Below are positions 8,744-56,861 of a stretch of DNA of 64,000 bases, piece after piece; position 1 is the stretch's first letter, and the number at the start of each line of letters is the position of its first letter. The stretch lies in contig QZKH01000002.1 in the NCBI GenBank assembly GCA_003598025.1, forward strand, positions 10,133 through 74,132, read 5' to 3'. A program made the position numbers and the translations under genes. The notes under the pieces were generated by a model. The model did not search any database. It was not told the origin of the DNA and was given only the letters and a program-made list of their open reading frames with translations. Source of the DNA: Candidatus Omnitrophota bacterium (GTDB taxonomy: Bacteria; Omnitrophota; Gorgyraeia; Gygaellales; Profunditerraquicolaceae).

Positions 8744-9571
8744 TTGTTCATAGCTATGGATATAAATGATATAGAATTTACAATTTTTGATACCGAAACA
8801 ACCGGGCTTAACCCGCATTCCGGAGACAGGGTAGTTGAAATCGCCGCTGTCCGCATAAAGGGATTCCGGAAAATTTCAACATTTGAAAGCCTTATTAATC
8901 CAGGCAGAGGCGTATCTGAGGCGGCCTTTAATGTCAATCATATTGCTGAAAGCATGCTTCAAACAGCGCCGTTTCCGGAAAAAGTTTTTCCGGAATTCCT
9001 ATCGTTCATAAAAAACAGTTGCATCTGTTCATATAATGCAAGTTTTGATATTGCATTTTTGGATAAAGAGCTTGGATTGCTCGGCCAAAGATTAGACGAT
9101 AACGTTATTGTTATAGATATGCTGAAGATGGCCAGGCGCCTTTTGCCTGGTTTAGAGCGTTATGCCTTATGGTTTGTGGCAGACTATTTCGGCATAAAGC
9201 GCAAACAGGAACACAGGGCCTTAGCTGATGTGGAATTCAGCCTAGAGGTATTTTATAGGCTGATGAATATGTTAAAAGAAAGATCTATCGTAGAGATGGA
9301 TAATTTTATGCATCTTTTTGGAATAAGGTCTGAGGCGGTTTCCGGGATAAACAACGAAAAAATCGCCGAAATACAGGAAGCAATTGATCTTGGTGTTGAA
9401 ATAAAAATCAGATATATATCTGCGGTCAACGCTAAGGTTACAGAACGCAACGTCTTGCCGAAGCAGATTATACAGGATAAAGGGCAGGATTACCTGGTGG
9501 GGTATTGCAGCTTAAGGCAGGACCAGAGGACTTTTAGAATCGATGGCATACTGGATATCGAAATCTTATAA
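8744..9571 (+). CDS. DnaQ-like 3'-5' exonuclease (DEDDh) fused to a C-terminal WYL domain
   Basis: Exo I FDTETTG, Exo II YNASFDIAFL and Exo III HRALADV are present. The C-terminal 60 aa, IRYISAVNAKVTERNVLPKQIIQDKGQDYLVGYCSLRQDQRTFRIDGI, match the WYL-domain consensus (IxYxS...YLxGxC...RxFRxDRI). Confidence 0.7.
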   Translation: MFIAMDINDIEFTIFDTETTGLNPHSGDRVVEIAAVRIKGFRKISTFESLINPGRGVSEAAFNVNHIAESMLQTAPFPEKVFPEFLSFIKNSCICSYNASFDIAFLDKELGLLGQRLDDNVIVIDMLKMARRLLPGLERYALWFVADYFGIKRKQEHRALADVEFSLEVFYRLMNMLKERSIVEMDNFMHLFGIRSEAVSGINNEKIAEIQEAIDLGVEIKIRYISAVNAKVTERNVLPKQIIQDKGQDYLVGYCSLRQDQRTFRIDGILDIEIL

Positions 9572-10916: not shown

Positions 10917-11739
10917 AATGACGGTCTTTTTTAACGGTAAATTTGTAGACAGGCATGATCTGAAGGCTTCGGTCCTGGATGAAGGGTTTCTTTATGGATA
11001 CGGGCTATTTGAAACCATGCGTGCTTACAATAATAAAATATTATTATTAGACCAGCACATAGAAAGAATGTTTGTTTCTGCAGGATTGATATCTTTTGCA
11101 ATGCCTTATTCATCGGCAAAAACCAGGGATATAGTGGAATCAGCCGTTCTAAAATCCGGCTTAAAAGACGCCTTTGTAAGGTTGTCATGCTGGAGGTCAA
11201 AGAAGATAAACAGCATATTAGTCATTGCAAGAAAATACAAACCCTACTCTTCGAGGGTGTATAAAAAAGGTTTTTCTGCTATAATCTCAAGGTTTACTAA
11301 AGACCAGGATTCAATGTTAAGCAGAATAAAAAGCAATAACTATCTTTTATGCAGGTTGGCTTTTATGGAAGCCTTAAGCCTTAAGTCCGATGAAGCAATT
11401 TTGTTGAACAACGACGGATTAATCTGTGAAGGCAGCAGGTCGAATATTTTCTTTGTAAAAAACAGACGGATTTATACGCCTTCTTTAGAATGCGGCTGTT
11501 TATCCGGCATAACGAGGGAATTGATTATAAAGATGATTCTTAGATCAGGGCTGGATGTCAAAGAGGGTAAATTCGGGATTAACCAGTTATATGCAGCAGA
11601 TGAGGCTTTCTTTACCAATTCTTTGATGGGTGTTATGCCTTTAACTAAAATCGGCAAGCTCAGGATAAATAACTCTAATACCGGTAAGATAACCGAAAAA
11701 CTCATTTCCGATTACGATAACTTATTAAAAAACGCATGA
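10906..11739 (+). CDS. pabC: Aminodeoxychorismate lyase (class IV aminotransferase fold)
   Basis: GFLYGYGLFETMRAYNNK...LDQHIERM is a class IV (BCAT/ADCL) signature. The position after pabB and the size (277 aa) fit PabC. Confidence 0.6.
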   Translation: MQGKMTVFFNGKFVDRHDLKASVLDEGFLYGYGLFETMRAYNNKILLLDQHIERMFVSAGLISFAMPYSSAKTRDIVESAVLKSGLKDAFVRLSCWRSKKINSILVIARKYKPYSSRVYKKGFSAIISRFTKDQDSMLSRIKSNNYLLCRLAFMEALSLKSDEAILLNNDGLICEGSRSNIFFVKNRRIYTPSLECGCLSGITRELIIKMILRSGLDVKEGKFGINQLYAADEAFFTNSLMGVMPLTKIGKLRINNSNTGKITEKLISDYDNLLKNA

Positions 11740-12851
11740 CAATAATTAACCTTCCGTTTATTATGAAAAGTCCGGTGCTGGCTCTAGGCGCCAACAGCAA
11801 GAATAGAATCTGTTTTGCTAAAGGCAGTAAAGCATATTTAAGCAATATGCATGAGAATTTGGATAACATAGATGATCTATCCGAATTTGAAAAAAGTGCC
11901 AAGAGCGCATTAAGCAGAAAGCCAAAAATCATCGCCTGTGATCTGCACAGCGGATATTTATCCAGCAGATACGCTGATGAAATAAGCGAAGGCAATTTAT
12001 TAAAAAAGCCTATCCAGCACCATCACGCTCATATTGCTTCATGCATGGCCGAGAACCAATTTAAAAATGAATACGTTATAGGTGTTGCTTTCGACGGCAC
12101 GGGTTTAGGCGTTGACGGCAATATCTGGGGAGCAGAATTTCTTTTCTGTAATTATGCAAATTTCCAGAGGTTAATCCGCCTAGAATATATCCCGCTCCTG
12201 GGTTCGGAAAAGGCAATAACTGAACCGGCAAGATTAGCATATCTATGGTTGTACTTAATTTATAAAGATAGATTCTTGGATATAAAGATTAACCTGACCC
12301 AGGCTTTAAAGCCAAAGAAATGGGCGGTCTTTAAAAAGATGTATTCATCCGGCTTTAATTCTCCCAAAGCAAGCAGTATGGGACGTTTGTTTGATGCTGT
12401 CGCCAGCATAGTACTCGGCAAGCAAAAGGCAGAATTTGAGGCGGATTTAGCCATACAGCTTCAGAGGCTTGCTGAGAAAAGCAGTGATGTGCAGGCAGCT
12501 TATAAATTTTCATTTGTAAAACAGCCGCCTCTTTTTGTAATAGACCCAAGAGATATCTTTAAGGGTGTGGTTAAAGATACGACAAGCGGGCTGCCTGCCG
12601 GATATATTGCTAATCGGTTCCATTATACTATTGCCAGTATAATACTTGAGGGAGCAGAAAAAATAAGAAAGATAAAAAAGGCCAATAAAGTCGTGCTTTC
12701 AGGAGGGGTATTTCAAAATAGTCTTTTACTCCGCATGACTTTGGAATTATTATATAAGAAAGGCTTTAAAGTTTATACCCACAAGGCTTTATCCCCGAAT
12801 GACTCAAGTATAGCCTTGGGGCAGGCAGTAATAGCTAACTTCAAGGAATAA
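11736..12851 (+). CDS. hypF: HypF C-terminal Kae1/TsaD-like carbamoyltransferase domain, standalone (the acylphosphatase, Zn-finger and YrdC domains are absent)
   Basis: VLALGANSKNRICFAKGSKAYLSNMHENL...KIIACDLHSGYLSSRYA...IQHHHAHIASCMAEN...VIGVAFDGTGLGVDGNIWGAEF matches the HypF Kae1-like domain (HHHAH and DGTG(Y/L)G(D/V)DG motifs). At 371 aa it covers only about the C-terminal half of a canonical ~750-aa HypF. Confidence 0.7.
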   Translation: MTIINLPFIMKSPVLALGANSKNRICFAKGSKAYLSNMHENLDNIDDLSEFEKSAKSALSRKPKIIACDLHSGYLSSRYADEISEGNLLKKPIQHHHAHIASCMAENQFKNEYVIGVAFDGTGLGVDGNIWGAEFLFCNYANFQRLIRLEYIPLLGSEKAITEPARLAYLWLYLIYKDRFLDIKINLTQALKPKKWAVFKKMYSSGFNSPKASSMGRLFDAVASIVLGKQKAEFEADLAIQLQRLAEKSSDVQAAYKFSFVKQPPLFVIDPRDIFKGVVKDTTSGLPAGYIANRFHYTIASIILEGAEKIRKIKKANKVVLSGGVFQNSLLLRMTLELLYKKGFKVYTHKALSPNDSSIALGQAVIANFKE

Positions 12852-12852
12852 T

Positions 12853-13065
12853 ATGTGCTTAGCAGTCCCAATGAGAATAAAGAAGATTAATCAAAATTTC
12901 GCCAAGGTTGAAATCTCCGGTCTTATACGGCATGTAAACGTGCAGATGCTACCCGGGTTAAAAAAGGGAGATTATGTAATCGTGCATGCGGGTTTTGCGA
13001 TACAAAAAATAGACCCCCTGGAAGCCAAAAAAACATTAAAGGTGTTTAATGAAATATGTAGATGA
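12853..13065 (+). CDS. hypC: Hydrogenase maturation factor HypC/HupF
   Basis: The N-terminal MCLAVPMRI has the essential Cys2. The 70-aa OB-fold protein starts 2 nt after the hypF-like stop and overlaps hypD. Confidence 0.85.
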   Translation: MCLAVPMRIKKINQNFAKVEISGLIRHVNVQMLPGLKKGDYVIVHAGFAIQKIDPLEAKKTLKVFNEICR

Positions 13066-14152
13066 ATTCCGCAATAAAATACTTGTTGAGAAGATCGCAT
13101 CAGGGATCAAGGCCTTGAATATCGACGCAAAAGTTAACCTTATGGAAGTCTGCGGAACGCATACTCAAAGTTTTGCAAGGTTTGGCCTGAATAAATTCCT
13201 GCCTGAAAATATACGGCTTATACCGGGACCGGGATGCCCGGTTTGCGTTTCAAGCCCGCAGTATATAGATAGGGCGATTAGCTTGGCCAAAGACAAAAAC
13301 AATATAATTGTTACTTTCGGTGATATGCTGCGTGTCCCGGGTAGCGTATCATCTCTAGAAAAAGAAAGGATGCGTTTTGGCAATGTTATTGCCGTATATT
13401 CACCGCTGGATGCCTTAAGGATTGCCAAGGCGGATTCCGCAAAAAAAATATTTTTTCTTGCCGTTGGTTTTGAGACTACAGCCCCCACTATTGCTATAAC
13501 AGCAATGCTTGCCAAGAAGGAGAAAATAAACAATATTTTCTTTCTATCTTCCCTAAAGCTGATGCCGCCTGCGATGAGGTTTTTGTTAAAAGATAAGAGG
13601 CTTAATATAGATGGTTTTCTTTGCCCGGGGCATGTCTCCAGCATTATCGGTCTTAAGCCCTATGAATTTATACCGCGTAAGCATAAAATAGGTTGCTGTG
13701 TGGCAGGTTTTGAGCCGACGGATATCTTAGAAGGAATACTTATGCTTTGCCGGCAGATCGCAGACAATAAGCCCAGGGTAGATAATCAATACAGCAGGGT
13801 TGTAAAAAATAACGGCAACCCTAAAGCCCGGAAAATTATCCACAATGTATTTGAAACCTGCGATGCGCAGTGGAGAGGCTTAGGCGTGATTACAAATAGT
13901 GGCCTTAAATTAAGAAAAAAATACTCGGGTTTAGATGCCGAGTCAATCATGCATTTTGAGAGAAGAACAGTGTTCCATCCGGAAGAGTTTGCTAAGGGAT
14001 GCAAATGCGGCCAGGTTCTAAAAGGGCTGATTATGCCTAAAGACTGCCCGTTATTCTACGTGAAGTGCAAGCCGGATTCTCCCATTGGCCCATGTATGGT
14101 TTCCAGCGAAGGAGCATGCAATGCGTATTTCAGGTATAAAAGGCAGAAGTAA
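13049..14152 (+). CDS. hypD: Hydrogenase maturation factor HypD
   Basis: MKYVDEFRN N-terminus, the CGTHTQSF and PGPGCPVCV motifs, and the C-terminal Cys-rich CKCGQV...CPLFYVKC. Confidence 0.85.
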   Translation: MKYVDEFRNKILVEKIASGIKALNIDAKVNLMEVCGTHTQSFARFGLNKFLPENIRLIPGPGCPVCVSSPQYIDRAISLAKDKNNIIVTFGDMLRVPGSVSSLEKERMRFGNVIAVYSPLDALRIAKADSAKKIFFLAVGFETTAPTIAITAMLAKKEKINNIFFLSSLKLMPPAMRFLLKDKRLNIDGFLCPGHVSSIIGLKPYEFIPRKHKIGCCVAGFEPTDILEGILMLCRQIADNKPRVDNQYSRVVKNNGNPKARKIIHNVFETCDAQWRGLGVITNSGLKLRKKYSGLDAESIMHFERRTVFHPEEFAKGCKCGQVLKGLIMPKDCPLFYVKCKPDSPIGPCMVSSEGACNAYFRYKRQK

Positions 14153-20927: not shown

Positions 20928-21911
20928 ATGGCAAATAAAATAAAACTCTTAAAGAAACCAAAATTAAAAAACCCATACCTCATTGTGGCCTGGCCGGGTA
21001 TAGGGGAGGTAGCCTTTAAGGCGGCTACTTATCTTGTTGAACAGCTTAAAGCCACCGAGTTTGCAGAAATGGAGGCGGAGGAATTTTTTTATCTTACCGG
21101 CAGCGTAATACGTAACGGGATAATGGAGACGCCGCAGCTTCCTTACAATAAATTTTATTACTGGAAAAACAAAACAGGAAGTAACGACCTGATAATTTTT
21201 ATAAGCAATGCGCAACCCGACCTTTCCCGCGGGCAAGATTATTGCCAGGAAATAATTGACCTGGCCAAAAGTTTCAAGGTAAAAATGGTGATTGGCTTTG
21301 CCGCTATGCCCCAGCCCATAGAACACACCCAGCAGCCGGGTGTCCGTTTCGCCTGCACTTCCGCAAAATTGAACAATGAAATGAAAAAACACGGCTTTAC
21401 TACTTTGCCAGAAGGCCAAATAAGCGGGATGAACGGTTTATTTTTGGGGATCGCTAAAAGGGAAGGCTTAGAGGGGGTTTCATTTTTAGGAGAGGTACCC
21501 CTTTATACCATCCAGATTGAAAACCCCAAGGCCAGCTATGCAATATTAGATGCGTTAAACAGGATTTTAAGGATAAGCCTCGATTTCACCGCTTTAATCG
21601 AACAGATGCACGCCGTAGATGAGGAAATAAACAAACTCTTAGACTATCTTAAAATCGGCACGCAGGCTTCAGGCCCGATTAATGAAGACGAGATTGAAAA
21701 GATAAAAAAGACATTAGGCCAGCTTACAAAACTGCCTTTTTCCGTGAAGGAAAAAATAGATAAGTTATTCAGCTTGGCAAAAAATGATATTGCCAAGGCC
21801 CAGGAACTAAAGAATGAACTTGATAAGTGGAACGTCTATAAGGACTATGAAGACAGGTTTCTGGACCTGTTCAGGAAAGATTCGGGTGCAGATAAAGAGA
21901 AGGACAATTAA
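20928..21911 (+). CDS. PAC2 (proteasome assembly chaperone 2-like) family protein
   Basis: The N-terminal KKPKLKNPYLIVAWPGIGEVAFKAATYLVEQL matches the PAC2-family N-terminal consensus. The C-terminal half is coiled-coil-like. Confidence 0.45.
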   Translation: MANKIKLLKKPKLKNPYLIVAWPGIGEVAFKAATYLVEQLKATEFAEMEAEEFFYLTGSVIRNGIMETPQLPYNKFYYWKNKTGSNDLIIFISNAQPDLSRGQDYCQEIIDLAKSFKVKMVIGFAAMPQPIEHTQQPGVRFACTSAKLNNEMKKHGFTTLPEGQISGMNGLFLGIAKREGLEGVSFLGEVPLYTIQIENPKASYAILDALNRILRISLDFTALIEQMHAVDEEINKLLDYLKIGTQASGPINEDEIEKIKKTLGQLTKLPFSVKEKIDKLFSLAKNDIAKAQELKNELDKWNVYKDYEDRFLDLFRKDSGADKEKDN

Positions 21912-22576: not shown

Positions 22577-23590
22577 ATGATTCTTAAAAATGACAAGATA
22601 ACTTTGGGCCACGGCGCCGGAGGAAGGCGCATGCACAGCCTTATAAGCGAACTCTTTCTCAAGGAGTTCAATAACCCTGTACTCTCTGAGTTAGGAGACA
22701 GTGCGTTAATTAATATCAAGGGCCGGATCGCTTTTTCCACAGATTCATTCGTTGTAGACCCGGTTATCTTTGAAGGCGGAGATATCGGTAAATTAAGCGT
22801 TTGCGGGACGATAAATGACCTTGTGGTGTCCGGGGCTATCCCTAAGTTTTTATCATTGGCTATCATAGCAGAGGAGGGCCTGGATATTCTATTGCTTAAA
22901 AGGATAGTTGCATCTATAAAAAAATCTTCCAAAGCAGCCGGCATTACGATAGTAACCGGTGATTTTAAAGTCGTGGAAAAGGGTGCCTGTGACAATATAT
23001 TTATCAATACTGCGGGGATAGGGATTTCGATTTCCGGCAGATTATTAGCTGCCGATAGGATAGTAAACGGCGACAAAATTATAGTCACCGGGAATATAGC
23101 CGAACACGGCTTAGCGGTATTAAGCAGAAGGATGGGTTTTTCTTTAGAAGGCCAGATAAGAAGCGATTGCGCAGCATTAAACGGCCTTATATTGCCTGTT
23201 TTAAGAAGGTTCAATAGCATAAAATTTATGCGCGACCCGACACGCGGCGGCCTGGCTACGACATTAAATGAGATTGCCAAATTGGCAAATGTAGGCTTAG
23301 TCATAAATGAAAAGGATATACCTGTCACCAGCAAGGTAAATGCCGGTTGCGAATTGCTGGGCATGGATCCTTTGTTTATTGCCAATGAAGGTAAAGCTGT
23401 AATAATAGCTGAGAGCAGGCAATCTTTGAGAATTGTGGATATGCTGCGCAGGCACCCTTTAGGCAAGAATGCAGCGATAATAGGCAGTGTTGTTAAAAAT
23501 CCGGCTCGAAAGGTTATAATAAAGACAATTACCGGTTCCAGGCGTGTATTAGATATGGCTCCGGATGAAATTACGCCAAGAATATGCTAG
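22577..23590 (+). CDS. hypE: Hydrogenase maturation protein HypE (AIR-synthase-related, carbamoyl dehydratase)
   Basis: N-terminal KITLGHGAGGRRMHSLI (HypE GHG(A/G)GG motif) and PurM-like N and C domains. It is 337 aa and ends in ...PRIC with the conserved terminal Cys. Confidence 0.8.
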   Translation: MILKNDKITLGHGAGGRRMHSLISELFLKEFNNPVLSELGDSALINIKGRIAFSTDSFVVDPVIFEGGDIGKLSVCGTINDLVVSGAIPKFLSLAIIAEEGLDILLLKRIVASIKKSSKAAGITIVTGDFKVVEKGACDNIFINTAGIGISISGRLLAADRIVNGDKIIVTGNIAEHGLAVLSRRMGFSLEGQIRSDCAALNGLILPVLRRFNSIKFMRDPTRGGLATTLNEIAKLANVGLVINEKDIPVTSKVNAGCELLGMDPLFIANEGKAVIIAESRQSLRIVDMLRRHPLGKNAAIIGSVVKNPARKVIIKTITGSRRVLDMAPDEITPRIC

Positions 23591-23748
23591 GGAGCAGATT
23601 AAAGCAAAGTTTTTGATAAAAATACCCCCAATTTTTAAAAAAACCTTGACAAACAAACAGCATTATGATTAAATTAATTAAATAGAAAAAAATTTTTAAT
23701 TTTTTTTGGAGGAAGAATAAAATAAATTGAAAAAAATAGTGTAAAACC

Positions 23749-23780
23749 AAGGGCTCTGATTTTACGGAGCCCTTTTTTAT
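23749..23780 (+). terminator. Intrinsic terminator-like hairpin (AAGGGCTC-N10-GAGCCCTT followed by a T6 run); possible attenuator in the leader of the ATP-grasp/kamA operon
   Basis: Directly visible: an 8-bp GC-containing stem 23749-23756 / 23767-23774, a 10-nt loop and a TTTTTT run. It lies only 10 nt upstream of the ATG at 23790 and about 100 nt downstream of a TTGACA box at 23646. Confidence 0.45.
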
Positions 23781-23789
23781 GTTTTTAAA

Positions 23790-24779
23790 ATGATATCCGT
23801 AGGATTAACATACGATTTAAAATCAGATTATACATTTAAAGAAGGCGACCCGCCCGACGCAAATGCCGAGTTTGACAGTCCTTCTACCGTTGACGTTATT
23901 GCAAATGCCATAAAGGCATGTGGGTTCAACGTTAAGAAGATCGGCAATGCCAGCAAGGTGCTGGAGAATTTCGGCAACCTCGATGTAGATATAGTGTTTA
24001 ATATTTCAGAAGGCCTTACCGGGCGCAATAGAGAATCCCAGGTACCTATACTTTTAGAGATGGCCGGCATTCCTTATGTGGGTTCCGATGCTTTTACTCT
24101 GGCACTTACATTGGATAAGGTAATGGCTAAGAAGATCTTTACTGCCGGAAATATACCCACCCCGAAATATTTCGAAATAAAAACCGAGGAAGAATTAATA
24201 AACCTTGACCATTGCAGGTTCCCCTTAATAGTGAAGCCGCGTTTTGAGGGCTCCTCAAAAGGATTAAGTGAAAACTCAAGAGTTGCAAATGAAAAAGAGC
24301 TTAAAGCCCAAGCCAGCCGTATAATAAATATTTACAAACAGCCGGCATTGGTAGAAGAATTTATAAGGGGTAAAGAGTTTACTGTGGCTGTCGTCGGTAA
24401 TGATAGTCCCGAGGTCCTGCCGGTTGTGCAGATAAAAATTGACGGCAACCTTGATTTAAAAGACCAGTTTTATACTTTTGCCCGTATAGCCAGCGATAAA
24501 CTTGAGTACGTTTGCCCGGCCAAAATAAGCAAAAAACTCGAGAATAAAATTTCTGAACTGGCCTTGATGACTTATAATGCGGTTGAATGCCGTGATTTTG
24601 GAAGAATTGATTTCCGGGTTGATGAAAAGGATAATCCCTATGTCTTAGAGATCAATCCTTTGCCGTCACTTTCCACCGAAGATGTATTTATGCTTCTTGC
24701 GCAGAATAAAGGCATGACTTATGCCCAGATGATCGGGAAAATACTTAACGGTGCATTTAAGAGGTACGGAATCGTATAG
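23790..24779 (+). CDS. D-alanine--D-alanine ligase family ATP-grasp enzyme (paralogue 1)
   Basis: Ddl N-domain (GIPYVGSDAFTLALTLDKVMAKKIF), a central ATP-grasp region (PLIVKPRFEGSSKGLS...ALVEEFIRGKEFTV) and a C-terminal EINPLPSLS. Confidence 0.75.
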   Translation: MISVGLTYDLKSDYTFKEGDPPDANAEFDSPSTVDVIANAIKACGFNVKKIGNASKVLENFGNLDVDIVFNISEGLTGRNRESQVPILLEMAGIPYVGSDAFTLALTLDKVMAKKIFTAGNIPTPKYFEIKTEEELINLDHCRFPLIVKPRFEGSSKGLSENSRVANEKELKAQASRIINIYKQPALVEEFIRGKEFTVAVVGNDSPEVLPVVQIKIDGNLDLKDQFYTFARIASDKLEYVCPAKISKKLENKISELALMTYNAVECRDFGRIDFRVDEKDNPYVLEINPLPSLSTEDVFMLLAQNKGMTYAQMIGKILNGAFKRYGIV

Positions 24780-25808
24780 ATGAAAATTGCGCTTGCGTGC
24801 AATTTGAAGAAGAAGGACAAGACTAAGCCGGTAGATTATTTCTCGGAATTTGACTCCGAGGAAACAGCGCAGGCGATAATTTCTGCTTTGGCTAAAAAGG
24901 GCCATAGCGTTGATTTTGTAGATTTGAATTATCCCGATATTTTGTCATATTTTCGGAAAAACAGGGTTGACATGGTATTTAATATCGCCGAAGGAAGATT
25001 CGGTAAATACCGTGAATCAGAGGTACCGGCAGTTTTGGATTATTTAAAGATCCCTTATACCGGTTCAAGGCCGTTTTCTCTGGCATTGGCGCTTAATAAA
25101 TCTCTGACAAAAAAGATACTTATTGCTGAAGGTATCCCTACTCCTAAATCACAGCTCTTTCTAAGAGGGGACGAGGAATTAAACCCGGAATTAAAATTCC
25201 CGTTGATTGTCAAACCTAATCGTGAGGGTTCGGGTAAAGGCATAGGTTTATCAAGCGTTTTTCTTAAAAGAGAGACGCTTTATGATAAGATTAGAGAGAT
25301 AATAAAAGTTTATAACCAGGAGGCACTGGTCGAAGAGTTTGTTGACGGCAAAGAATTGACCGTTGGTATATTGGGTAATAATAACCCGACGATCTTGCCT
25401 ATATTAGAAATAGATTTTTCTGATTGTGTTTCAAGCGGAGAATATTTTTACAGCTGGCGTATGAAAGAATTTCAGGGTAACAAAGATCTGGGGTTGACCC
25501 CGAAATTCTACTGCCCTGCAAGGTTAGACCAGGAAACGGCAAGCATAGTCAAGGCAGCTGCTTTAAAGACTCATAAAGCAATAGGGTGTTTTGATATATC
25601 GCGGACTGATATACGTTTAAATAAGGATAATACCCCTTATGTTTTAGAGATTAATCCTCTACCTGGGCTTAATCCCCGGGAATCAAACTTCCCGATGATG
25701 GCATATGCCGCAGGTATGAAGTATGAGGATATAATAGAGTCGATACTTATTAGCGCTTCAGAAAGAGAAAGGAGCAAAATTGGGCAACCAATTAGTAACC
25801 GAGAATAA
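24780..25808 (+). CDS. D-alanine--D-alanine ligase family ATP-grasp enzyme (paralogue 2)
   Basis: KIPYTGSRPFSLALALNKSLTKKIL, PLIVKPNREGSGKGIG, ALVEEFVDGKELTV and EINPLPGLN. It has the same architecture as the upstream gene and starts 1 nt after that gene's stop. Confidence 0.75.
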   Translation: MKIALACNLKKKDKTKPVDYFSEFDSEETAQAIISALAKKGHSVDFVDLNYPDILSYFRKNRVDMVFNIAEGRFGKYRESEVPAVLDYLKIPYTGSRPFSLALALNKSLTKKILIAEGIPTPKSQLFLRGDEELNPELKFPLIVKPNREGSGKGIGLSSVFLKRETLYDKIREIIKVYNQEALVEEFVDGKELTVGILGNNNPTILPILEIDFSDCVSSGEYFYSWRMKEFQGNKDLGLTPKFYCPARLDQETASIVKAAALKTHKAIGCFDISRTDIRLNKDNTPYVLEINPLPGLNPRESNFPMMAYAAGMKYEDIIESILISASERERSKIGQPISNRE

Positions 25809-26955
25809 AGCTGTAAATGAAGCTACCGCGCAGCCACGCTCTAGGAGATCGCAGGATTATCAGCAGATAAGCCTGTATAAAGACGTCAACCCTTTAGACT
25901 GGGAAGATTGGCATTGGCAACTCAAACACAGAATTTATTCCAAGGACGACCTTTCGCAAATAATAAAAATCACTTCAGAGGAAGAAGCGGCAATAAAAAA
26001 GGCTAGCGGCAGGTTATCTATGGCCATAACTCCTTATTGGGCTTCTCTAATCGACCCTGAAGACCCGGCATGCCCTTTAAGAAGGCAGGCAGTGCCAGTA
26101 TTGGCGGAATCAGAAATCGGCCCGCATGAAATGACTGATCCTTGCGCAGAAGACAGGGATTCACCTGCCCCGCACCTGGTACACAGGTACCCGGACAGGG
26201 TCCTGCTTTTAGCAACCGAGCATTGCGCTATGTATTGCCGTCATTGCACCCGACGCAGGCTAGTCGGCGAACATCCTGAGTCTAAAACCGATTCCAGGTT
26301 CGATCAGGCGATAGAGTATATAAAATCCAACCGTAAAATCAGGGATGTGCTTATATCGGGAGGGGATCCTTTGGTTATGGAAGACGAAGATATCGAGGAT
26401 CTGCTTAAAAAGATCCGCTCGATATCTCATGTAGAATTTGTCAGGATCGGCACGCGTGTGCCCGTGACCCTGCCTCAGAGGATAACGGAAAAATTAGTAA
26501 ATACCCTTAAAAAGTATTCTCCTGTTTGGATGAGCATACATTTCAATCATCCTAAAGAGATCACTAAACGTTGCAAGATGGCATGCGATATGCTTGCCGA
26601 TGCCGGTATACCGCTAGGCAGCCAGACAGTCCTGCTCAAGGGCATAAATGACAGGCCTTATATCATGCGTAAGCTTGTGCATGAACTCCTCAAAATAAGA
26701 GTCAGGCCGTATTATATATATCAATGCGACCCGGTAAAAGGCACTCAGCATTTCAGGACATCGGTCTCTGCCGGGATCAACATCATGGAGAAATTACGCG
26801 GGCATACCTCTGGATATGCTGTGCCGACTTATGTTATTGACGGGCCAGGAGGCGGAGGTAAGATCCCCGTCGGGCCTAATTATATCTTATCTCAGGCTAA
26901 AGGCAAGTTCGTCCTGAGAAATTACAAGGGCAAGATTTATACTTATTCAGAATAA
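25780..26955 (+). CDS. kamA: Lysine 2,3-aminomutase family radical SAM/PLP enzyme (KamA-like)
   Basis: Near-collinear with B. subtilis KamA: WEDWHWQLKHRI, ITPYWASLIDPEDPACPLRRQAVP, DSPAPHLVHRYPDRVLLLATEHCAMYCRHCTRRR (the CxxxCxxC radical SAM cluster). TTG start with an AAAGGAG RBS. Substrate (lysine, glutamate or another amino acid) is not resolvable by eye. Confidence 0.8.
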   Translation: MGNQLVTENKAVNEATAQPRSRRSQDYQQISLYKDVNPLDWEDWHWQLKHRIYSKDDLSQIIKITSEEEAAIKKASGRLSMAITPYWASLIDPEDPACPLRRQAVPVLAESEIGPHEMTDPCAEDRDSPAPHLVHRYPDRVLLLATEHCAMYCRHCTRRRLVGEHPESKTDSRFDQAIEYIKSNRKIRDVLISGGDPLVMEDEDIEDLLKKIRSISHVEFVRIGTRVPVTLPQRITEKLVNTLKKYSPVWMSIHFNHPKEITKRCKMACDMLADAGIPLGSQTVLLKGINDRPYIMRKLVHELLKIRVRPYYIYQCDPVKGTQHFRTSVSAGINIMEKLRGHTSGYAVPTYVIDGPGGGGKIPVGPNYILSQAKGKFVLRNYKGKIYTYSE

Positions 26956-27291: not shown

Positions 27292-29247
27292 ATGGATGCA
27301 AAGAACAAGAGGAGTATTATCCTTTTAGGGCATGCTCAATCCGGTAAAACCAGCCTTGCCGAAAGCATGCTTTATTTTACCAAATCCAGCAGCAGAAAAG
27401 GCACAATAAATGACGGCACCACTGTCAGCGATTATAGCAGCGATGAGATCGAAAGAAAAAGTTCAATAAACTTAAGTTTCATGTTCTGTGATCATAAAGG
27501 GGTAAGGATCCAGATTGTTGATGCCCCTGGTTATGCCGATTTCCAAGGGGAAGTGTTTTCTGGAGTAAGGGCGGTAGATAATGCCGTTATAATAGTTGAT
27601 GCCTCTGGAGGGGTTGAGGTAGGGACAGAGAGGGCCTGGCAGCTGGCGGAAGAGTATGAGCTACCTGCCATTCTATTTATTAATAAGACAGATAAAGAAA
27701 ACTCCGGTCCGGAAAAGGTATTGACAGATATCCGTCAGAGGCTTTCTCCCAAGGCAATGGTTATAAATTCTTTGGAAGACCCTGAACTGGTTGAGGCGAT
27801 TGCAGAGAGCGATGATAAACTGCTGGAAAAATATCTTGAAGGCGCCAAGCTTACAAGTGAAGAATTGTCTTTAGGCCTTACCCTGGCAGTATCAAAAAGG
27901 AAAGTATTTCCCGTAATAGCAGGCTCAGCTTTGGCTGATAAAGGCATAGCAGAACTTTTAGATGCGGTTGTTAATTATTTGCCCAGCCCTTTAGAAAGAA
28001 AAGTAATGGCGCATGAGCCCTTAGGTAATACAGAAAAAGAAATCTCCTGTAAGCCCGATGAGCCGTTTTCTTCCTTTGTATTTAAAAGCTTTTCTGACCC
28101 GTATATAGGGCAATTAACGCTGTTAAGGGTTTTTTCGGGGGGGCTTGCTGCTAATACCGGATTTTATAATGTAAGCAAGAAGCTTAAAGAAAAAATCGGG
28201 CCTATTTATATGCTGCAGGGTAAAGAACAAAGGCCTGTTGATTCTGCTTCTTGCGGGGATATAGTTGCTATCGCTAAATTAAAAGATACCTTCACAAATG
28301 ATTCTTTGAGCGATGAGAAGCACCCCGTAGTATTTGATCCGATTGTTTTTCCCGAACCGGCGATATCAGCATCGGTTAAGCCAAAGACCAGCCATGATGA
28401 GGAAAAGATCTCCATAGCCCTGCATAAACTGGCAGCTGAGGACCCCACTTTTAAGTCAACGCATGACCCTCAGACGAAAGAATTGATTATTTCCGGATTA
28501 GGGGACCAGCATTTAGATGTAATGGTCGGGCGCATGAAAAAAAGGTTTCATGTTGAGGTAGATGTGGGCACTCCCAAAGTTTCCTACAGAGAGACGATTT
28601 CTAAGTCGGCTAAGGTACAAGGCAAATTTAAGCGTCAGTCAGGCGGCAGGGGCCAATATGGTGACGTATGGCTTGAGATACAGCCGCTTGAGAGAGGCGC
28701 GGGTTTTGAATTCGTTGATAAGATTTTCGGCGGAGCAATACCGAGAAATTATATCCCTTCGGTTGAAAAGGGCGTATTACAGGCTTGCCAGGAGGGAGCA
28801 ATAGCAGGGTATCCTATAGTTGACCTGCGTGTCATACTTTTTGACGGTTCCTATCATGAAGTAGACTCTTCTGATATGGCCTTTCAGATCGCCGGCTCCA
28901 TGGCTTTAAGGAAAGCAATACTGGCGGCAGGCCCGATTTTACTGGAGCCTTTTATGGATGCAGAGATTGTGATCCCCGAGGAATATTTAGGAGCGATATC
29001 CGGTGATATGAATTCACGGCGCGGCAGGATCATAGGCATGGAGATAAAAGGCAAGAAGCAAATAGTAAAGGCGCAAGTACCGCTTTCAGAGATGTTTAGG
29101 TATGCTAATGATCTGCGTTCAATTACCGGAGGAAGGGGCGTTTATACTATGCGCTTTTCGCATTATGGAGAAGTACCGCATAAAGTATCCGCTAATATAA
29201 TCGCACAATATCAGTCAACAAAGAAGCAGGAAGAAGCTACGGTTTGA
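27292..29247 (+). CDS. EF-G family translational GTPase paralogue with divergent G motifs
   Basis: EF-G five-domain architecture (651 aa), but G1 is [10 protein letters not shown] rather than AHIDAGKTT and G3 is DAPGYADF rather than DTPGHVDF. NKTD (G4) is conserved. The C-terminal domains IV/V are EF-G-like (e.g. GDQHLDV, GGRGQYG). Confidence 0.75.
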
Positions 29248-29257
29248 GGAGCCCTAC

Positions 29258-29959
29258 GTGAAAATATCTAACTTTTCAGTACCCAATATAAATATAGGTA
29301 AGCATAATATTAAAGACCAAAGGCTTGACCAGGTAGACAGTATTGTAAAAGCCAAGAAAAAAACGTATATACAGGTAGAGGTTATTGCCCCTGAGCTTAT
29401 GCTCGAGGCAGATGCTATAATTGTTCCCCGTGATCTTACAAGCGACCTTATATTAAAGGATTTGGAGTTCACTGAGACCAGGCTTTCAAGGAGCGCCGAC
29501 GAAAAAGAGAAGGCGCTGCTTGCTTTTATCAAGGCCCAGCTTGAGAAAGAAGTTTTTGTTTGTAACATGCAGCTGGATGCCGAACAGAAACAGCTTGTTT
29601 CAGGATACGGCTTGATTACAGGCAGGCCAGTAATCGTTGCAGAGAGCAGCGATTCGGATAACACCAACTCCTTTTTATCCAGGGCTGTTGCTGAAGGAGG
29701 CTTTATCAGCTTTTTTACTGCCGGAGAAAAAGATACCCGAGCATGGCTTATACGCAAGGGAACAACTGCCTGGCTTGCCGCAGGCGTAATCCATTCAGAT
29801 ATTCAGCGCGGATTCATACGCGCCGAGATAATAAGTTTCAATGATTTTATACAATTTGGCGGTGAGGTAAAAGCTAAACAGGCAGGTAAAATGAGGCTTG
29901 AGCAGAAGGATTATATTATGCAGGACGCAGATTTAGCAAATTTCCGTTTTAATAAATGA
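29258..29959 (+). CDS. YchF/OLA1-like protein lacking the P-loop G domain (helical and TGS domains retained)
   Basis: The C-terminal region [39 protein letters not shown]...[24 protein letters not shown] closely matches the YchF TGS/DUF933 domain. The N-terminus has no GxxxxGK[ST] motif and is only about 60 aa, where YchF has a ~150-aa G domain. GTG start with a GAGGAG RBS. Confidence 0.6.
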
Positions 29960-29981: not shown

Positions 29982-31538
29982 ATGGCCCAGGTGAAGCGCG
30001 CTTTAATAAGTGTTTCCGATAAAACAGGCATATTGGATTTTGCAAAAGAGCTGGACAAAATGGGTATCGAGATTCTTTCTACGGGAGGGACAGCTAAACT
30101 CCTGCGCGAAAACAAAATATCCGTGAAAGATGTTTCGGATTATACGGGTTTTCCGGAAATACTTGATGGCAGGGTTAAGACATTGCATCCTAAGATCCAT
30201 GCCGGGCTTCTTGCATTAAGAGAGAACAGCCAGCATATGCTTACGTTAACTGACCTGGGTTTAGGATTGATAGACCTCGTAGTCGTAAATTTATATCCCT
30301 TTGAAAAAACAACCCAGAAGCCGGGTGTTACTATTGAAGAGGTAATCGAGAATATCGATATCGGCGGGCCGTCAATGCTTCGTTCCGCGGCTAAGAATGC
30401 CCATTCAGTAGTTGTGGTATGTAACCCCAGTCGTTATTCCCAGGTTATAAGTGAACTAAAGGCAAATAACGGCTCGATCCCGGAAGGGCTTATGCGCAGC
30501 CTGGGTGTAGAGGTATTCTTGCATACCAGCCGTTACGACAATGCGATATATAATTATCTGAGCAATTATTTTAGCGGTAAAACAGAAGATACCGCATTTC
30601 CTAGCGAAGTCAGTTTTACATTTGAGAAGATACAGGACCTAAGATATGGAGAAAACTCTCATCAAAAGGCAGCATTCTATAAGGAAAAAAACAAAAATAG
30701 GGGTATCATTAATTTAAAACAGCTCCAGGGCAAAGAGCTATCTTTCAATAATATCCTTGATTTAAACAGCTCATGGGAGCTTGTCAATGAATTTGAAAAT
30801 CCGGCAGCTGTAATAGTCAAGCATAATAATCCCTGTGGCGTTGCGCAAGATTATAGCCTTTCCAAGGCATATCTTAGCGCATGGAAATGCGACTCACTTT
30901 CGGCATTTGGCGGGATAGTGGCATTAAACAGAAAGCTTGATTTAACAACTGCGAAATTGATTGCAAAGAGCGGATTCCTGGAATGTATAATTGCCCCAGA
31001 TTATGATGAGCAGGCAAAAGGATATTTCAAGGATAAGAAAAATCTTAGGGTGCTTACGTTGAAGGATTCAGGCCCTATGCTTGATACCGATTTAAAAAGG
31101 GTCAGCGGAGGACTGCTTTTGCAGGATAAAGATGTAAAGACCATTGATTTGAAAGAGATTAAAATAGTTACTAAGAAAAAACCAAGCAAAGTTCAAATGC
31201 AGAGTTTAATTTTCGGATGGAAGGTGGCAAAGCACGTAAAATCAAATGCGATAGTCCTTACCAGGGGCAATAAAACCGTAGGCATAGGTGCCGGCCAAAT
31301 GTCCAGGGTAGATTCTGTTACTATAGCTAAAATTAAATCATCAGGCCAGATAAAGAACTCTTGTCTTGCTTCTGATGCCTTCTTTCCGAAGGCAGATGCC
31401 GTGGTGCTGGCGGCTAAATCAGGAGTGAAGGCGATAATACAGCCGGGCGGCTCGATTTCGGACAAGGAAATAATAAAAGCCTGCGATAAATATGGTATTT
31501 CTATGGTATTTACCGGTATCAGGCATTTCAGGCATTGA
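29982..31538 (+). CDS. purH: Bifunctional AICAR transformylase / IMP cyclohydrolase
   Basis: The MGS-like N-terminus MAQVKRALISVSDKTGILDFAKELDKMGIEILSTGGTAKLL and the AICARFT domain follow PurH over the full length (518 aa). Confidence 0.9.
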   Translation: MAQVKRALISVSDKTGILDFAKELDKMGIEILSTGGTAKLLRENKISVKDVSDYTGFPEILDGRVKTLHPKIHAGLLALRENSQHMLTLTDLGLGLIDLVVVNLYPFEKTTQKPGVTIEEVIENIDIGGPSMLRSAAKNAHSVVVVCNPSRYSQVISELKANNGSIPEGLMRSLGVEVFLHTSRYDNAIYNYLSNYFSGKTEDTAFPSEVSFTFEKIQDLRYGENSHQKAAFYKEKNKNRGIINLKQLQGKELSFNNILDLNSSWELVNEFENPAAVIVKHNNPCGVAQDYSLSKAYLSAWKCDSLSAFGGIVALNRKLDLTTAKLIAKSGFLECIIAPDYDEQAKGYFKDKKNLRVLTLKDSGPMLDTDLKRVSGGLLLQDKDVKTIDLKEIKIVTKKKPSKVQMQSLIFGWKVAKHVKSNAIVLTRGNKTVGIGAGQMSRVDSVTIAKIKSSGQIKNSCLASDAFFPKADAVVLAAKSGVKAIIQPGGSISDKEIIKACDKYGISMVFTGIRHFRH

Positions 31539-31583
31539 CAAGCCCGCTTTTTTAGTTTCCTGGCTGGAGAATAATCACAAGAA

Positions 31584-32936
31584 GTGACCTATCCCGAAGT
31601 TCTCAAGTATTTAGAATCCTTTATAAACTACGAAAAGATCCCGGTTTACCCGTATAAAGAATCTTGTAAACTTGAACGGGTCAAAGGCCTCTTGGATCTG
31701 ATCGGTAATCCCCAGCATAAATTAAGGTGTGTGCATGTTGCCGGTTCCAAGGGCAAGGGTTCGACTTGCTCTTTTGCCGCATATATTTTAAGGGCCTGCG
31801 GTTTTCAAGTAGGGCTATATACATCTCCGCATTTGAATGATTTTAGAGAAAGAATCAGAGTCTTAAGTTATCAGGCGTCAGCTTTCAGCCGCCAGTGTGA
31901 TTTTGAAGGGATGATAACTGAGCAGGAATTAACCGGGATAGTCACAGAATACAAAGCGGTTTTTGATGATTATTGCAGTAAATCGGAATATGGCCCGCTT
32001 TCTTTCTTTGAAGTCTATACTACGATAGCGTTTATTTATTATTTAAGGAAAAATGTGGATTTTGTCGTCCTTGAAACAGGGCTTGGAGGCAGGCTTGATG
32101 CTACTAATACGGTTTATTCTTTAGTCAGTGTAATCACCCCGATAAGTTATGAGCATACACAGAAATTAGGCAATACGCTTGGTGAAATTGCCTATGAAAA
32201 AGCTGGGATAATAAAAGGAATCAAGGAATCAAGGGGGCCGATAGTCATTTGTGCGCCTCAAGAAAAAGAAGTTACGGAAGTAATTAAGAAAAAATGCCAG
32301 GATACGGGGTCAAGGCTATACAGGGTAGGAGAGGATATCTTATATGGCCATAAGGCCGGGAAATTATGGATCAAAGGTATTTTCGGAGAATATCATGATT
32401 TGGAGATAAAGCTTGCCGGCGAACACCAATTAATGAATGCAGTTACTGCTGTTGCAGCAGTAGAAGCGCTGCATTTTCTTGGAATTCATTCCCGGCCTGA
32501 ATGCATAAGAGAAGGGTTAAAAAACACTTCTTGGCCAGGAAGGTGCGAGGTGGTCTCCAGGAAACCTCTTGTTGTCTTAGACGGAGCCCATAATGAAGCT
32601 TCGGCAAGAGCTCTCAGGGAGACGCTGTTAAATAACTTTAAATTTAAACGCGTGATCTCAGTGATAGGAATGTCCAATGACAAAGATATAGCAGGATTCT
32701 GCAGGGAGCTTGATAAAATTAGCGATATTGTAATTTTGACCAAAGCGGATAACCCCAGGGCAGTTGAACCTAACGAATTAAGCCTGTTTTTTAGGACACA
32801 ACACAAGTTTATTGCCTCCGATTTAAGATCCGCCAGACTTGAAGTTATCAATAACGCGGCTCAAGAAGACCTTGTAATTATAACCGGATCTTTATTTCTT
32901 GTTGGAGAGGCCAGGGTATTATCATGGGCAAGTTAA
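31584..32936 (+). CDS. folC: Folylpolyglutamate synthase / dihydrofolate synthase (Mur ligase family)
   Basis: P-loop VAGSKGKGSTC and the Mur ligase middle and C domains. GTG start. Confidence 0.8.
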   Translation: MTYPEVLKYLESFINYEKIPVYPYKESCKLERVKGLLDLIGNPQHKLRCVHVAGSKGKGSTCSFAAYILRACGFQVGLYTSPHLNDFRERIRVLSYQASAFSRQCDFEGMITEQELTGIVTEYKAVFDDYCSKSEYGPLSFFEVYTTIAFIYYLRKNVDFVVLETGLGGRLDATNTVYSLVSVITPISYEHTQKLGNTLGEIAYEKAGIIKGIKESRGPIVICAPQEKEVTEVIKKKCQDTGSRLYRVGEDILYGHKAGKLWIKGIFGEYHDLEIKLAGEHQLMNAVTAVAAVEALHFLGIHSRPECIREGLKNTSWPGRCEVVSRKPLVVLDGAHNEASARALRETLLNNFKFKRVISVIGMSNDKDIAGFCRELDKISDIVILTKADNPRAVEPNELSLFFRTQHKFIASDLRSARLEVINNAAQEDLVIITGSLFLVGEARVLSWAS

Positions 32937-34365: not shown

Positions 34366-34935
34366 ATGAAAGAAATGAATAAAAAGAAGATCGAAGATGC
34401 GGTAAGGCAGATACTGGAGGCAATAGGCGAGAACCCGCGTAAAAAAGATCTATTGGATACCCCCAGGAGAGTCGCCGAGATGTATGAAGAGATTTTTTCC
34501 GGTATAAGCCAGGACCCGAATAAAGAATTAGAAGTTATACTGGACCAGAAACATCATGAAATAATACTTCTCAAGAATGTGCCTTTATACAGCGTATGCG
34601 AGCATCATCTCTTGCCTTTTATAGGCAAAGCGCATATAGCCTACATACCGCGCAAGGGCAGAGTAACGGGGTTAAGTAAATTGGCAAGAGTGGTGGATAT
34701 TCTGGCAAGAAGGCCGCAGGTCCAGGAGAGGCTCACTACTCAAATAGTCGAGATCATTATGTCTAAATTGAGGCCTTTAGGAGCTATGGTAGTCATAGAG
34801 GCAGAGCATCTTTGTATGTCTATGCGTGGTGTAAGAAAGCCGGGTACACTTACTGTCACATCGGCAGTCAGGGGTATTTTTAAGGAAAACGAAAAGACTC
34901 GTGCAGAGACATTAGCGCTGATGAAAGATAGGTAA
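34366..34935 (+). CDS. folE: GTP cyclohydrolase I
   Basis: The CEHHLLPF active-site motif, the size (189 aa) and overall collinearity with FolE. Confidence 0.9.
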
Positions 34936-56826: not shown

Positions 56827-56861
56827 TAAGGCAAGCCAATGAAAATAACAACGGAGGATTT

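Follow-up and report, generated by a model that had tools for sequence, protein, structure and literature searches.

A conserved Omnitrophota operon of two Ddl-like ATP-grasp ligases and a lysine 2,3-aminomutase, a candidate route to beta-lysine conjugates

The window analysed here is a 64,000-nt stretch of contig QZKH01000002.1 from a Candidatus Omnitrophota bacterium (assembly GCA_003598025.1). It contains a compact three-gene locus, preceded by a promoter-like site and a short leader, with the following features (window positions):

23646..23675, + strand: promoter-like site, TTGACA-18 nt-TAAATT, with 10 of 12 consensus matches
23708..23744, + strand: conserved leader segment, GGAGG (23708-23712) followed by the motif AAATTG[A/G]AAAAA
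23749..23780, + strand: terminator-like hairpin, AAGGGCTCT-loop-GGAGCCCTT, of 10 pairs (6 G-C), followed by a T-run
23790..24779, + strand: AG1, Ddl-fold ATP-grasp ligase, 329 aa, ATG start (ORF list and sequence)
24780..25808, + strand: AG2, paralogous Ddl-fold ATP-grasp ligase, 342 aa, ATG start (ORF list and sequence)
25780..26955, + strand: KamA/AblA-type lysine 2,3-aminomutase (radical SAM and PLP enzyme), short form, 391 aa, TTG start

An earlier reading of this DNA, made from the sequence only (hereafter the sequence-only reading), had described two full-length Ddl-family paralogues in tandem followed by KamA, and the three + strand ORFs were indeed found in that order. The 29-nt overlap that it gave for AG2 and KamA corresponds to positions 25780-25808, whereas the 1-nt gap that it placed between AG1 and AG2 had to be corrected to 0 nt, as the AG1 stop codon TAG (24777-24779) directly abuts the ATG of AG2 (24780). 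Inspection of the sequence revealed an AGGAG at 25770-25774, 5 nt 5′ of the KamA TTG, and orthologues align with KamA from the first residues, which supports the TTG start. A homologue search returned hundreds of proteins at 70-80% identity, indicating that AG1, AG2 and KamA are real genes and not chance ORFs. No third Ddl homologue was found in the 64-kb window, and no mur or fts gene either there or in about 170 related loci.

The region in front of AG1 is itself conserved. In a leader alignment of 22 loci the −35 element CTTGACA is invariant and the −10 region is conserved as a TGTGATAAAAA-like sequence. The downstream motif can be read in the window as a mini-ORF, TTG AAA AAA ATA GTG TAA (23727-23744), the length of which varies between loci; the spacing from GGAGG to TTG is 14 nt, long for a ribosome-binding site. 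The hairpin ends about 10 nt 5′ of the AG1 ATG, and its motif is seen once in the 64 kb, against 0.08 expected. In a per-locus scan, 66 of 125 loci had a comparable hairpin, conserved in its stem sequence and variable in its loop. RNAalifold recovered only 4 pairs from the leader alignment because the 3′ arm is misaligned there, and it is thus the per-locus scan that provides the evidence for the hairpin. Rfam gave no match in the window, nor in the leader of a related locus (L028). We regard the hairpin as a candidate attenuator or leader element, and read AG1, AG2 and KamA as a single dedicated transcription unit served by this conserved promoter and leader.

KamA shares 57% identity over 362 ungapped positions with the lysine 2,3-aminomutase of Clostridium subterminale (PDB 2A5H; gap-free match, E 3e-146) and matches the LAM_C and Radical_SAM domains. 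The cysteines of its CxxxCxxC motif, C149, C153 and C156 (Cys125, Cys129 and Cys132 of 2A5H), are invariant in 125 orthologues, and both the PLP-binding Lys337 (K361) and the alpha-carboxylate-binding Arg134 (R158) are kept. The sequence-only reading had singled out Asp293 and Asp330 as the specificity positions to check. These residues, which bind the lysine epsilon-ammonium and are replaced by Lys and Asn in glutamate 2,3-aminomutase, are present in KamA as D317 and D354, so the enzyme should be lysine-specific; all 119 Omnitrophota-type orthologues have Asp at the two positions. More generally, the equivalents of the Cys cluster, Arg134, Asp293, Asp330 and Lys337 are invariant in the approximately 119 Omnitrophota-type orthologues that cover them. 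KamA passes the AblA equivalog model TIGR03820 narrowly (532.1 bits, cut-off 525.4), whereas it fails the glutamate (488 versus 650 bits) and arginine (413 versus 600 bits) aminomutase models as well as the EpmB model TIGR03821 (251 bits, cut-off 369). It ends at the equivalent of residue 367 and thus does without the C-terminal zinc region (Cys375, Cys377 and Cys380), and the clostridial zinc ligand Cys268 is replaced by Arg292; given this short form, the quaternary structure may differ. Judged by these residues, KamA should convert free L-lysine to beta-lysine by radical SAM/PLP chemistry.

AG1 and AG2 share 39% identity (E 2e-68), and both match the Pfam domain Dala_Dala_lig_C (E 6e-40 and 4e-36, respectively). 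The AlphaFold model of AG1 (pLDDT 91.6) was compared with the PDB using Foldseek, and all 50 of the 50 matches listed (TM 0.69-0.80) were Ddl, Ddl-type D-Ala:D-lactate or Van-type ligases, the best being Ddl structures with TM 0.77-0.80 at about 25% identity. The PDB sequence matches of AG2 were likewise all Ddl or Van ligases. Both proteins are therefore predicted to have the full three-domain ATP-grasp fold of Ddl, AG1 from its model and AG2 from its sequence matches. Alignment to E. coli DdlB, which is uncertain towards the N-terminus and around the omega loop (the placement of K215/Y216 differed between two alignments), showed that the equivalents of K97, K144, E180, E187, R255, D257, E270 and N272 vary little or not at all across 164 AG1 and 130 AG2 sequences; by these ATP-, Mg- and catalytic-site residues, the two ligases should be catalytically intact. 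The substrate side is another matter. That is, His63 is replaced by Glu in all 164 AG1 and 130 AG2 sequences, Ser281/Leu282, which belong to the D-Ala2 site in Ddl, give way to Asp-Val in AG1 and to Ser-Asn in AG2, and Gly276 is Ser in AG1. The signature following ExNPLP reads S-L-S-T-E-D-V-F in AG1 and G-L-N-P-R-E-S-N-F-P in AG2. Moreover, both proteins score below the NCBIfam cut-offs for Ddl, with 189.9 (AG1) and 195.4 (AG2) bits against 243 for NF002378, and 168.9 and 160.5 bits against 245.65 for TIGR01205. The low scores and the altered D-Ala-binding positions bear out the earlier suggestion that these are not housekeeping Ddl enzymes. AG1-type and AG2-type proteins form separate clades, AG1-type being the core partner of KamA.

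The gene triad is conserved across the phylum. The sequence-only reading had asked for its conservation in related genomes to be checked, and all 83 of the 83 loci in which AG1 is at least 68% identical carry the three genes. At 50-67% AG1 identity, KamA is still the neighbour of AG1 in 19 of 19 loci, with just one ligase in 7 of these. Around AG1-type proteins at 40-42% identity there is no KamA; gene contexts at these distances were taken from a 50%-identity cluster library and individual look-ups. Gene fusions were also found. AG-KamA fusion proteins of 690-718 aa, 47-100% identical to the fusion protein P0219, make up at least 10 distinct clusters, KamA-AG fusions in the reverse order also occur, and double-ligase fusions are common. 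An apparent 838-aa AG2-KamA fusion at locus L093 was rejected as an open frame in a GC-rich contig. Taken together, the close loci, the distant loci and the fusions in both orders substantiate the functional link between KamA and the ligases that had been proposed. In the AG-KamA fusion clade Asp293 is replaced by Gln, and these proteins probably use another amino acid, so that they support a general module, not beta-lysine specifically.

Across 80 species-level loci the median identities were 73% for AG1, 71% for AG2 and 80% for KamA, compared with 70% for EF-G and PurH and 51-56% for FolC, HAD and M20. The neighbours are conserved too, with M20-PAC2-HAD upstream and PurH-FolC downstream. A large part of this synteny lies within a single phylum and takes in these neighbours, so gene order alone could reflect inheritance. 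The upstream M20 gene was considered as a recycling hydrolase and dismissed: it encodes an ArgE/DapE-type deacylase and is absent upstream in most loci at 50-60% AG1 identity, and was therefore left out of the module, although it is present upstream at one locus (L157) with an AG1 identity of 61%. Similarly, an EF-G paralogue and HypE come and go between loci and are not parts of the module.

AG1 and AG2 belong to a large unnamed Ddl-like family comprising more than 1,000 clusters at 50% identity. Some sister branches have S58 (DmpA/BapA-type) aminopeptidases as partners, others are fused to or adjoin GNAT acetyltransferases, and some relatives have a further ligase with a fused GNAT domain. 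A PTPS gene lies directly 5′ of one AG-KamA fusion, and an AG-KamA fusion gene is followed by one for a DUF2156/LPG_synthase_C protein; the window has a homologue of the latter at 7845-8735, 15 kb off with unrelated genes between, which makes it no more than a lead. A 305-aa protein encoded upstream of two fusions was considered as a DUF2156 protein and turned out not to be one.

From these data we propose that the operon probably makes beta-lysine and ligates it, in an ATP-dependent manner, into a small conjugate. KamA would convert free L-lysine to beta-lysine; AG1 and AG2 would then turn a carboxylate into an acyl phosphate at the expense of ATP and couple it to an amine, beta-lysine being one of the two partners. 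With its different acceptor pocket, AG2 could carry out a further ligation step or act as a heterodimer with AG1, and the product(s) would be small conjugates that hold beta-lysine in amide linkage, for example a di- or tripeptide or a beta-lysyl amine. The S58 and GNAT partners of the sister branches would, by analogy, argue for such a small molecule. On the other hand, accessory metabolite pathways are not usually as conserved as EF-G, which counts against this explanation.

That same conservation is what one would expect if the ligases instead attached beta-lysine to a macromolecule as a housekeeping modification, for example to a translation factor or ribosomal protein, in the manner of EF-P beta-lysylation, or to the side chain of a peptidoglycan precursor, in the manner of the ATP-grasp D-aspartate ligase. 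There are precedents for ATP-grasp enzymes acting on proteins or on precursors of the cell wall (RimK, LysX and Asl), the triad sits among core genes, and the EF-G paralogue follows 3′ of KamA in about half of the loci. This paralogue is missing from many loci, however, and no efp, EpmA-like or aaRS-like gene is found in the 64-kb window. KamA is AblA/KamA-like and not EpmB-like, the closest structures are Ddl enzymes acting on small substrates, and the sister branches partner an aminopeptidase or acetyltransferases, so that a macromolecular target, argued here by analogy, seems unlikely. It is improbable that the order of steps is reversed, a ligated lysine peptide being isomerised afterwards, or that the aminomutase substrate is not lysine. 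The fusions are silent on the order of steps, and the Gln of the AG-KamA fusion clade indicates that specificity varies in the wider family, but KamA closely resembles an enzyme of free lysine (57% identity) and has kept both R158, the ligand of a free alpha-carboxylate, and the two aspartates for the epsilon-ammonium.

The location of the module raises the idea that beta-lysine is added to the tail of a folate or pterin cofactor, much as other ATP-grasp enzymes add glutamate to methanopterin and F420. Down to 50% AG1 identity, purH-folC always follows the module on the same strand at a distance of 0.8-5 kb, with pabB-pabC inserted between the two in some lineages; pabB, pabC and folE are all in the window, and there is the PTPS gene that precedes one AG-KamA fusion. 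Yet synteny is the sole support here, and its constancy may mean no more than that purH-folC is a housekeeping block that stays together in Omnitrophota. Members of the family in Bacillota have no consistent folate context, and we know of no folate or pterin cofactor with a beta-lysine tail, which makes this analogy-based reading very doubtful. Still less probable is that AG1 and/or AG2 are ordinary D-Ala-D-Ala ligases next to kamA by mere inheritance of gene order. Ddl enzymes are their closest characterised relatives and the JGI annotation is D-alanine-D-alanine ligase, but both fall short of every NCBIfam Ddl cut-off, their D-Ala-binding positions have changed and then been strongly conserved, they have no mur/fts neighbours, they occur fused to the aminomutase in both orders, and GNAT and S58 partners in the family would make no sense for a Ddl.

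If the synthesis of a small beta-lysine conjugate is confirmed, an ATP-grasp route would be a fifth fate of beta-lysine besides the four known to us, i.e. its fermentation, its N-acetylation (yielding an osmolyte), its transfer to EF-P and its use as a building block of NRPS antibiotics. It would also supply a very large family, now labelled "D-alanine--D-alanine ligase", with its first function, and may reveal a core metabolite of Omnitrophota, an abundant and largely uncultivated phylum of ultra-small, host-dependent bacteria. The module consists of a few conserved, soluble enzymes and is therefore directly testable in vitro. The Ddl label can inflate inferences of peptidoglycan synthesis in uncultured phyla, and Omnitrophota may be one such case: according to a preprint, K01921 is present in 176 of 176 complete genomes of this phylum, and these calls could be AG1 or AG2 themselves.

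More speculatively, the observations may be combined into a single picture, to which we give limited credence, in which Omnitrophota and relatives such as some Elusimicrobiota need a new housekeeping beta-lysine molecule under the control of the leader, and the wider family is a ligation toolbox. The Ddl-like ligases would then make a housekeeping component (a modification of a protein, an envelope precursor or a cofactor tail) and not an accessory solute, while the promoter, conserved motif and sequence-conserved terminator hairpin would together be a new controlling leader element. The wider family would ligate beta- or other non-standard amino acids with lineage-specific partners, namely 2,3-aminomutases of differing specificity, GNAT acetyltransferases and S58 beta-aminopeptidases.

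The sequence-only reading is thus supported in part. It stands as regards the non-housekeeping ligases, the lysine-type KamA and the functional link between them, with a correction to the size of the AG1-AG2 gap; the beta-lysyl di- or tripeptide, compatible solute or cell-wall precursor that it suggested are candidate products only, and some lineages do with one ligase. It stands also in being aware of no described pathway of this kind, as full-text literature searches retrieved none that pairs an aminomutase with ATP-grasp/Ddl ligases, and the Omnitrophota overview papers make no mention of the AG1, AG2 and KamA genes. Several known systems do share parts of the arrangement. The AblA/AblB system for N-epsilon-acetyl-beta-lysine (methanogens; kamA-yodP in Bacillus) likewise combines, in one operon, an aminomutase and an enzyme forming an amide of beta-lysine; there, however, the partner is the GNAT protein AblB in place of an ATP-grasp pair (no GNAT is encoded in the window), and the window KamA lacks the C-terminal region. 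The EpmB/EpmA system of EF-P also couples a KamA-family aminomutase to ATP-dependent amide formation with beta-lysine, and EpmB and the window KamA are both short forms without the clostridial C-terminus. EpmA differs in being a lysyl-tRNA-synthetase paralogue and not an ATP-grasp enzyme, and the window has a KamA that fails the EpmB model and no efp nearby.

On the ligase side, DdlA, DdlB and VanA-type enzymes have the same three-domain fold and the same ATP/Mg2+ catalytic residues as AG1 and AG2, so the acyl-phosphate mechanism is presumably the same; AG1 and AG2 are set apart by their D-Ala-site changes, by tandem or fused doublets and by aminomutase or GNAT fusions. ATP-grasp ligases of small peptides include carnosine synthase (beta-alanyl-histidine), Ngg (GNAT plus ATP-grasp, N-acetylglutaminylglutamine amide) and the RizA/RizB tandem. 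They resemble the present module in joining free amino acids, including beta-amino acids, in the use of sequential ligases and in GNAT-ligase fusion, but belong to other ATP-grasp families and, to our knowledge, none is coupled to a 2,3-aminomutase. In the blasticidin S pathway the amide-forming ligase is an ATP-grasp enzyme. As in the present operon, a KamA-family aminomutase, the arginine 2,3-aminomutase BlsG (PMC5572114), feeds a beta-amino acid to a dedicated ligase. That pathway, however, is encoded by a large Streptomyces secondary-metabolite cluster and uses beta-arginine and a nucleoside acceptor, whereas the genes described here form a three-gene core operon conserved throughout a phylum.

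Two Ddl-fold ATP-grasp ligases (AG1 and AG2) followed by a lysine 2,3-aminomutase (KamA) had been proposed from the sequence alone as a candidate β-amino-acid peptide cassette. The three ORFs were found exactly at the positions then proposed, and both the ORF list and the sequence place them in the same direction:

23790-24779, + strand: AG1, ORF of 329 aa
24780-25808, + strand: AG2, ORF of 342 aa
25780-26955, + strand: KamA, ORF of 391 aa with a TTG start

The ligase genes are indeed back to back, except that the 1-nt gap described between them does not exist: the TAG stop codon of AG1 directly abuts the ATG of AG2, with 0 nt between. The 29-nt overlap of KamA with AG2 was confirmed, and the ribosome-binding site attributed to KamA is present as an AGGAG motif located 5 nt upstream of its TTG. 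The base composition of the triad is like that of the surrounding sequence, and the best database match, at 100% identity, is from a Candidatus Omnitrophota MAG.

The functional coupling of the ligases and KamA supposed in the sequence-only reading is borne out, being strongly supported by three lines of evidence, namely conservation, gene fusions and selection. Among loci (from 80 species-representative genomes and metagenome contigs) in which AG1 is at least 68% identical and enough downstream sequence is available, AG2 and KamA follow in the same order and with tight spacing in 83 of 83; at 50-67% AG1 identity, KamA adjoins AG1 in all 19 loci, 12 of which carry AG2 and 7 a single ligase, with the synteny evidence coming mostly from one phylum. 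In the 80 species-level genomes, the triad is conserved to the level of EF-G and PurH, and far above FolC, HAD and the M20 deacylase. No aminomutase was found near AG1-type proteins at 40-42% identity, and the KamA link is therefore clade-specific rather than family-wide.

Against 2A5H, the structure of lysine 2,3-aminomutase from Clostridium subterminale, KamA aligns without gaps (E 3e-146; 57% identity over 362 positions). In this alignment the Fe-S cysteines (C149, C153 and C156), the arginine binding the substrate carboxylate (R158) and the PLP lysine (K361) are all kept. The substrate-specificity check suggested earlier gave a positive answer, as both aspartates for the lysine ε-ammonium group are present (D317 and D354). 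These key residues are invariant in the approximately 119 orthologues covering them. KamA narrowly passes the NCBIfam AblA equivalog model (532.1 versus a cut-off of 525.4) and falls below the cut-offs of the NCBIfam glutamate, arginine and EpmB models. In clostridial numbering KamA stops at position 367, and its residue 292 is an Arg where the clostridial zinc ligand Cys268 stands, the cysteine being retained in none of the 123 orthologues covering the position; the zinc site and the C-terminal region are therefore missing. From its sequence we read KamA as a true lysine 2,3-aminomutase of the short form, which would use free lysine as substrate.

AG1 and AG2 share 39% identity with each other and about 30% each with E. 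coli DdlB, and all solved relatives found for them by sequence are Ddl or Van-type ligases. The confident AlphaFold model of AG1 (pLDDT 91.6) superposes over its full length on Ddl structures, with TM scores of 0.77-0.80. Both proteins are well short of the NCBI Ddl cut-off of 243 bits (190 for AG1 and 195 for AG2). When the DdlB residues were mapped onto 164 AG1-type and 130 AG2-type sequences, those serving ATP, Mg2+ and catalysis (K97, K144, E180, E187, R255, D257, E270 and N272) proved essentially invariant in both types, so that AG1 and AG2 should both be active ligases. His63 is replaced by Glu in every sequence of either type. Ser281-Leu282 of DdlB are the positions holding the carboxylate of the second D-alanine; their equivalents are Asp-Val in AG1 and Ser-Asn in AG2, and the motif after ExNPLP is strongly conserved and distinct in each paralogue. 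This would give AG1 and AG2 different acceptor pockets, neither of which looks D-Ala-like, and the acidic residues in these places would be well matched to a positively charged substrate. In a neighbour-joining tree read together with the key residues, every ligase that accompanies KamA alone or as the first of two falls into a single AG1-type clade, with AG2 in a clade of its own. The JGI label on AG1 homologues is D-alanine-D-alanine ligase. K01921 is reported from all 176 Omnitrophota genomes in a preprint (10.64898/2026.06.07.730766), a count that may therefore be confounded by AG1/AG2-type genes and partly reflect a non-Ddl family.

The 200 nt before AG1 include a leader with conserved elements (23646-23789). 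In sequence order, the -35 box CTTGACA is invariant and is accompanied by an extended -10-like element; GGAGG and the motif AAATTG[A/G]AAAAA come next, both conserved; last is a hairpin with the stem AAGGGCTCT ... AGAGCCCTT and a T-run, ending about 10 nt before the AG1 start codon. No Shine-Dalgarno sequence was seen at that start. The stem sequence is conserved across species and the loop is variable. The window (64 kb) contains the hairpin motif a single time, and no Rfam family matches it; about half of the close loci have the hairpin, and the distant ones lack it. The leader supports an autonomous transcription unit for the triad, and suggests a candidate attenuation or termination-reinitiation device. 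In HypE-bearing loci an extra 245-aa ORF lies between HypE and the leader (e.g. L028, 5061-5798), which is absent from the window.

Other genes of the window are the following:

9543-11739, 29982-32936 and 34366-34935: folate-related genes pabB, pabC, purH, folC and folE, and mnmE, around the triad
11736-14152 and 22577-23590: scattered hydrogenase maturation genes (HypF C-terminal-only protein, HypD, HypE)
20928-21911: bacterial PAC2 (proteasome assembly chaperone-like) protein, with an ArgE/DapE-type M20 deacylase on one side and a HAD hydrolase on the other
27292-29247: EF-G paralogue, 651 aa, passing the NF009381 EF-G subfamily model
29258-29959: 233-aa protein after the EF-G paralogue, with a YchF C-terminal domain as its only recognisable domain
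54342-58322: two tandem β-ketoacyl synthase genes, then a B12-binding radical SAM protein

The upstream M20-PAC2-HAD block is kept in most close loci. HypE and the EF-G paralogue are variably present beside the triad, the latter following KamA in about half of related loci. No GTPase domain was detected in the N-terminal ~150 residues of the 233-aa protein. Together with the cyclase, polyketide-cyclase-like, MFS and SDR genes downstream of it, the β-ketoacyl synthase region could be a cluster of lipid or polyketide-like type.

The wider ligase family, surveyed through a 50%-identity cluster library (1,116 representatives at E < 1e-30), is unnamed and matched by Ddl models only. It spreads over Omnitrophota, Elusimicrobiota, Bacillota, Anaerolineae and Myxococcota, with partners that vary by branch. 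Fused double ligases are many among the representatives. P0219 is a ligase-aminomutase fusion with at least 9 more full-length relatives (47-78% identical), and the opposite order is found in P0248 and one protein of L091. Loci with such fusions include:

L083 5022-9258, L174 4959-9157 and L175 2136-5808: members of the ligase-aminomutase fusion clade
L085 195-3873: aminomutase-ligase fusion, then ligase-GNAT fusion
L091 1078-6026: aminomutase-ligase fusion, stand-alone AG1-type ligase, ligase-GNAT fusion
L084 8001-11432: fused double Ddl-like ligase (724 aa), then Peptidase_S58 (DmpA/BapA-type)
L089 8001-10938: fused double Ddl-like ligase (598 aa), then Peptidase_S58 (DmpA/BapA-type)

In the ligase-aminomutase fusion clade, Gln takes the place of the first lysine-specifying aspartate (Asp293), and a module for amino acids other than lysine may therefore also exist. 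Two of the three listed fusions have upstream a class I/II aminotransferase and a conserved 305-aa protein (65% identity between its two loci; no Pfam match), and one has PTPS and a DUF2156/LPG_synthase_C protein as its flanking neighbours. The window itself encodes a stand-alone LPG_synthase_C protein (DUF2156, MprF C-terminal-like; 296 aa, 7845-8735) among glycosyltransferase genes 15 kb from the triad; the LPG_synthase_C protein after the fusion in L175 is its homologue (21% identity, E 5e-15).

We consider it probable that β-lysine made by KamA from lysine is ligated by AG1/AG2 into a small conjugate. AG1 would be the core partner, coupling β-lysine via acyl-phosphate chemistry, and AG2 would perform a second, different ligation or form a heterodimer with AG1. 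The heterodimer option has parallels in the dimeric state of Ddl enzymes and in the many fused doublets of this family. An ordinary Ddl function, against the pocket residues described, seems very improbable. The main rival, β-lysine modification of a macromolecule, would fit the housekeeping-level conservation of the triad and is a distinctly less likely reading. In L084 and L089, which are unrelated contigs, the S58 peptidase comes directly after the ligase (peptidases 44% identical), and the two may be a synthesis/degradation pair for some peptide. S58 enzymes cleave N-terminal D- or β-amino acids off small peptides. The GNAT domains of the L085 and L091 fusions are homologous to stand-alone GNATs near Bacillota members (L087, L088), and the osmolyte dipeptide synthase Ngg is a precedent for a GNAT-ATP-grasp fusion. 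By analogy, because of the S58 activity and the Ngg-type fusion, these partners point to small unusual peptides, not proteins, as family products.

More speculatively, the module could be linked to folate, the basis here being synteny alone: purH-folC is always just downstream (within 0.8-5 kb of KamA, the most distant loci included), pabB-pabC is inserted between KamA and purH-folC in some of the most distant lineages (L093, L117), and pabB, pabC and folE also lie within the window. As for the favoured small β-lysine conjugate, the triad would represent aminomutase-fed ATP-grasp ligation, which is partly supported as a variant of a known scheme.
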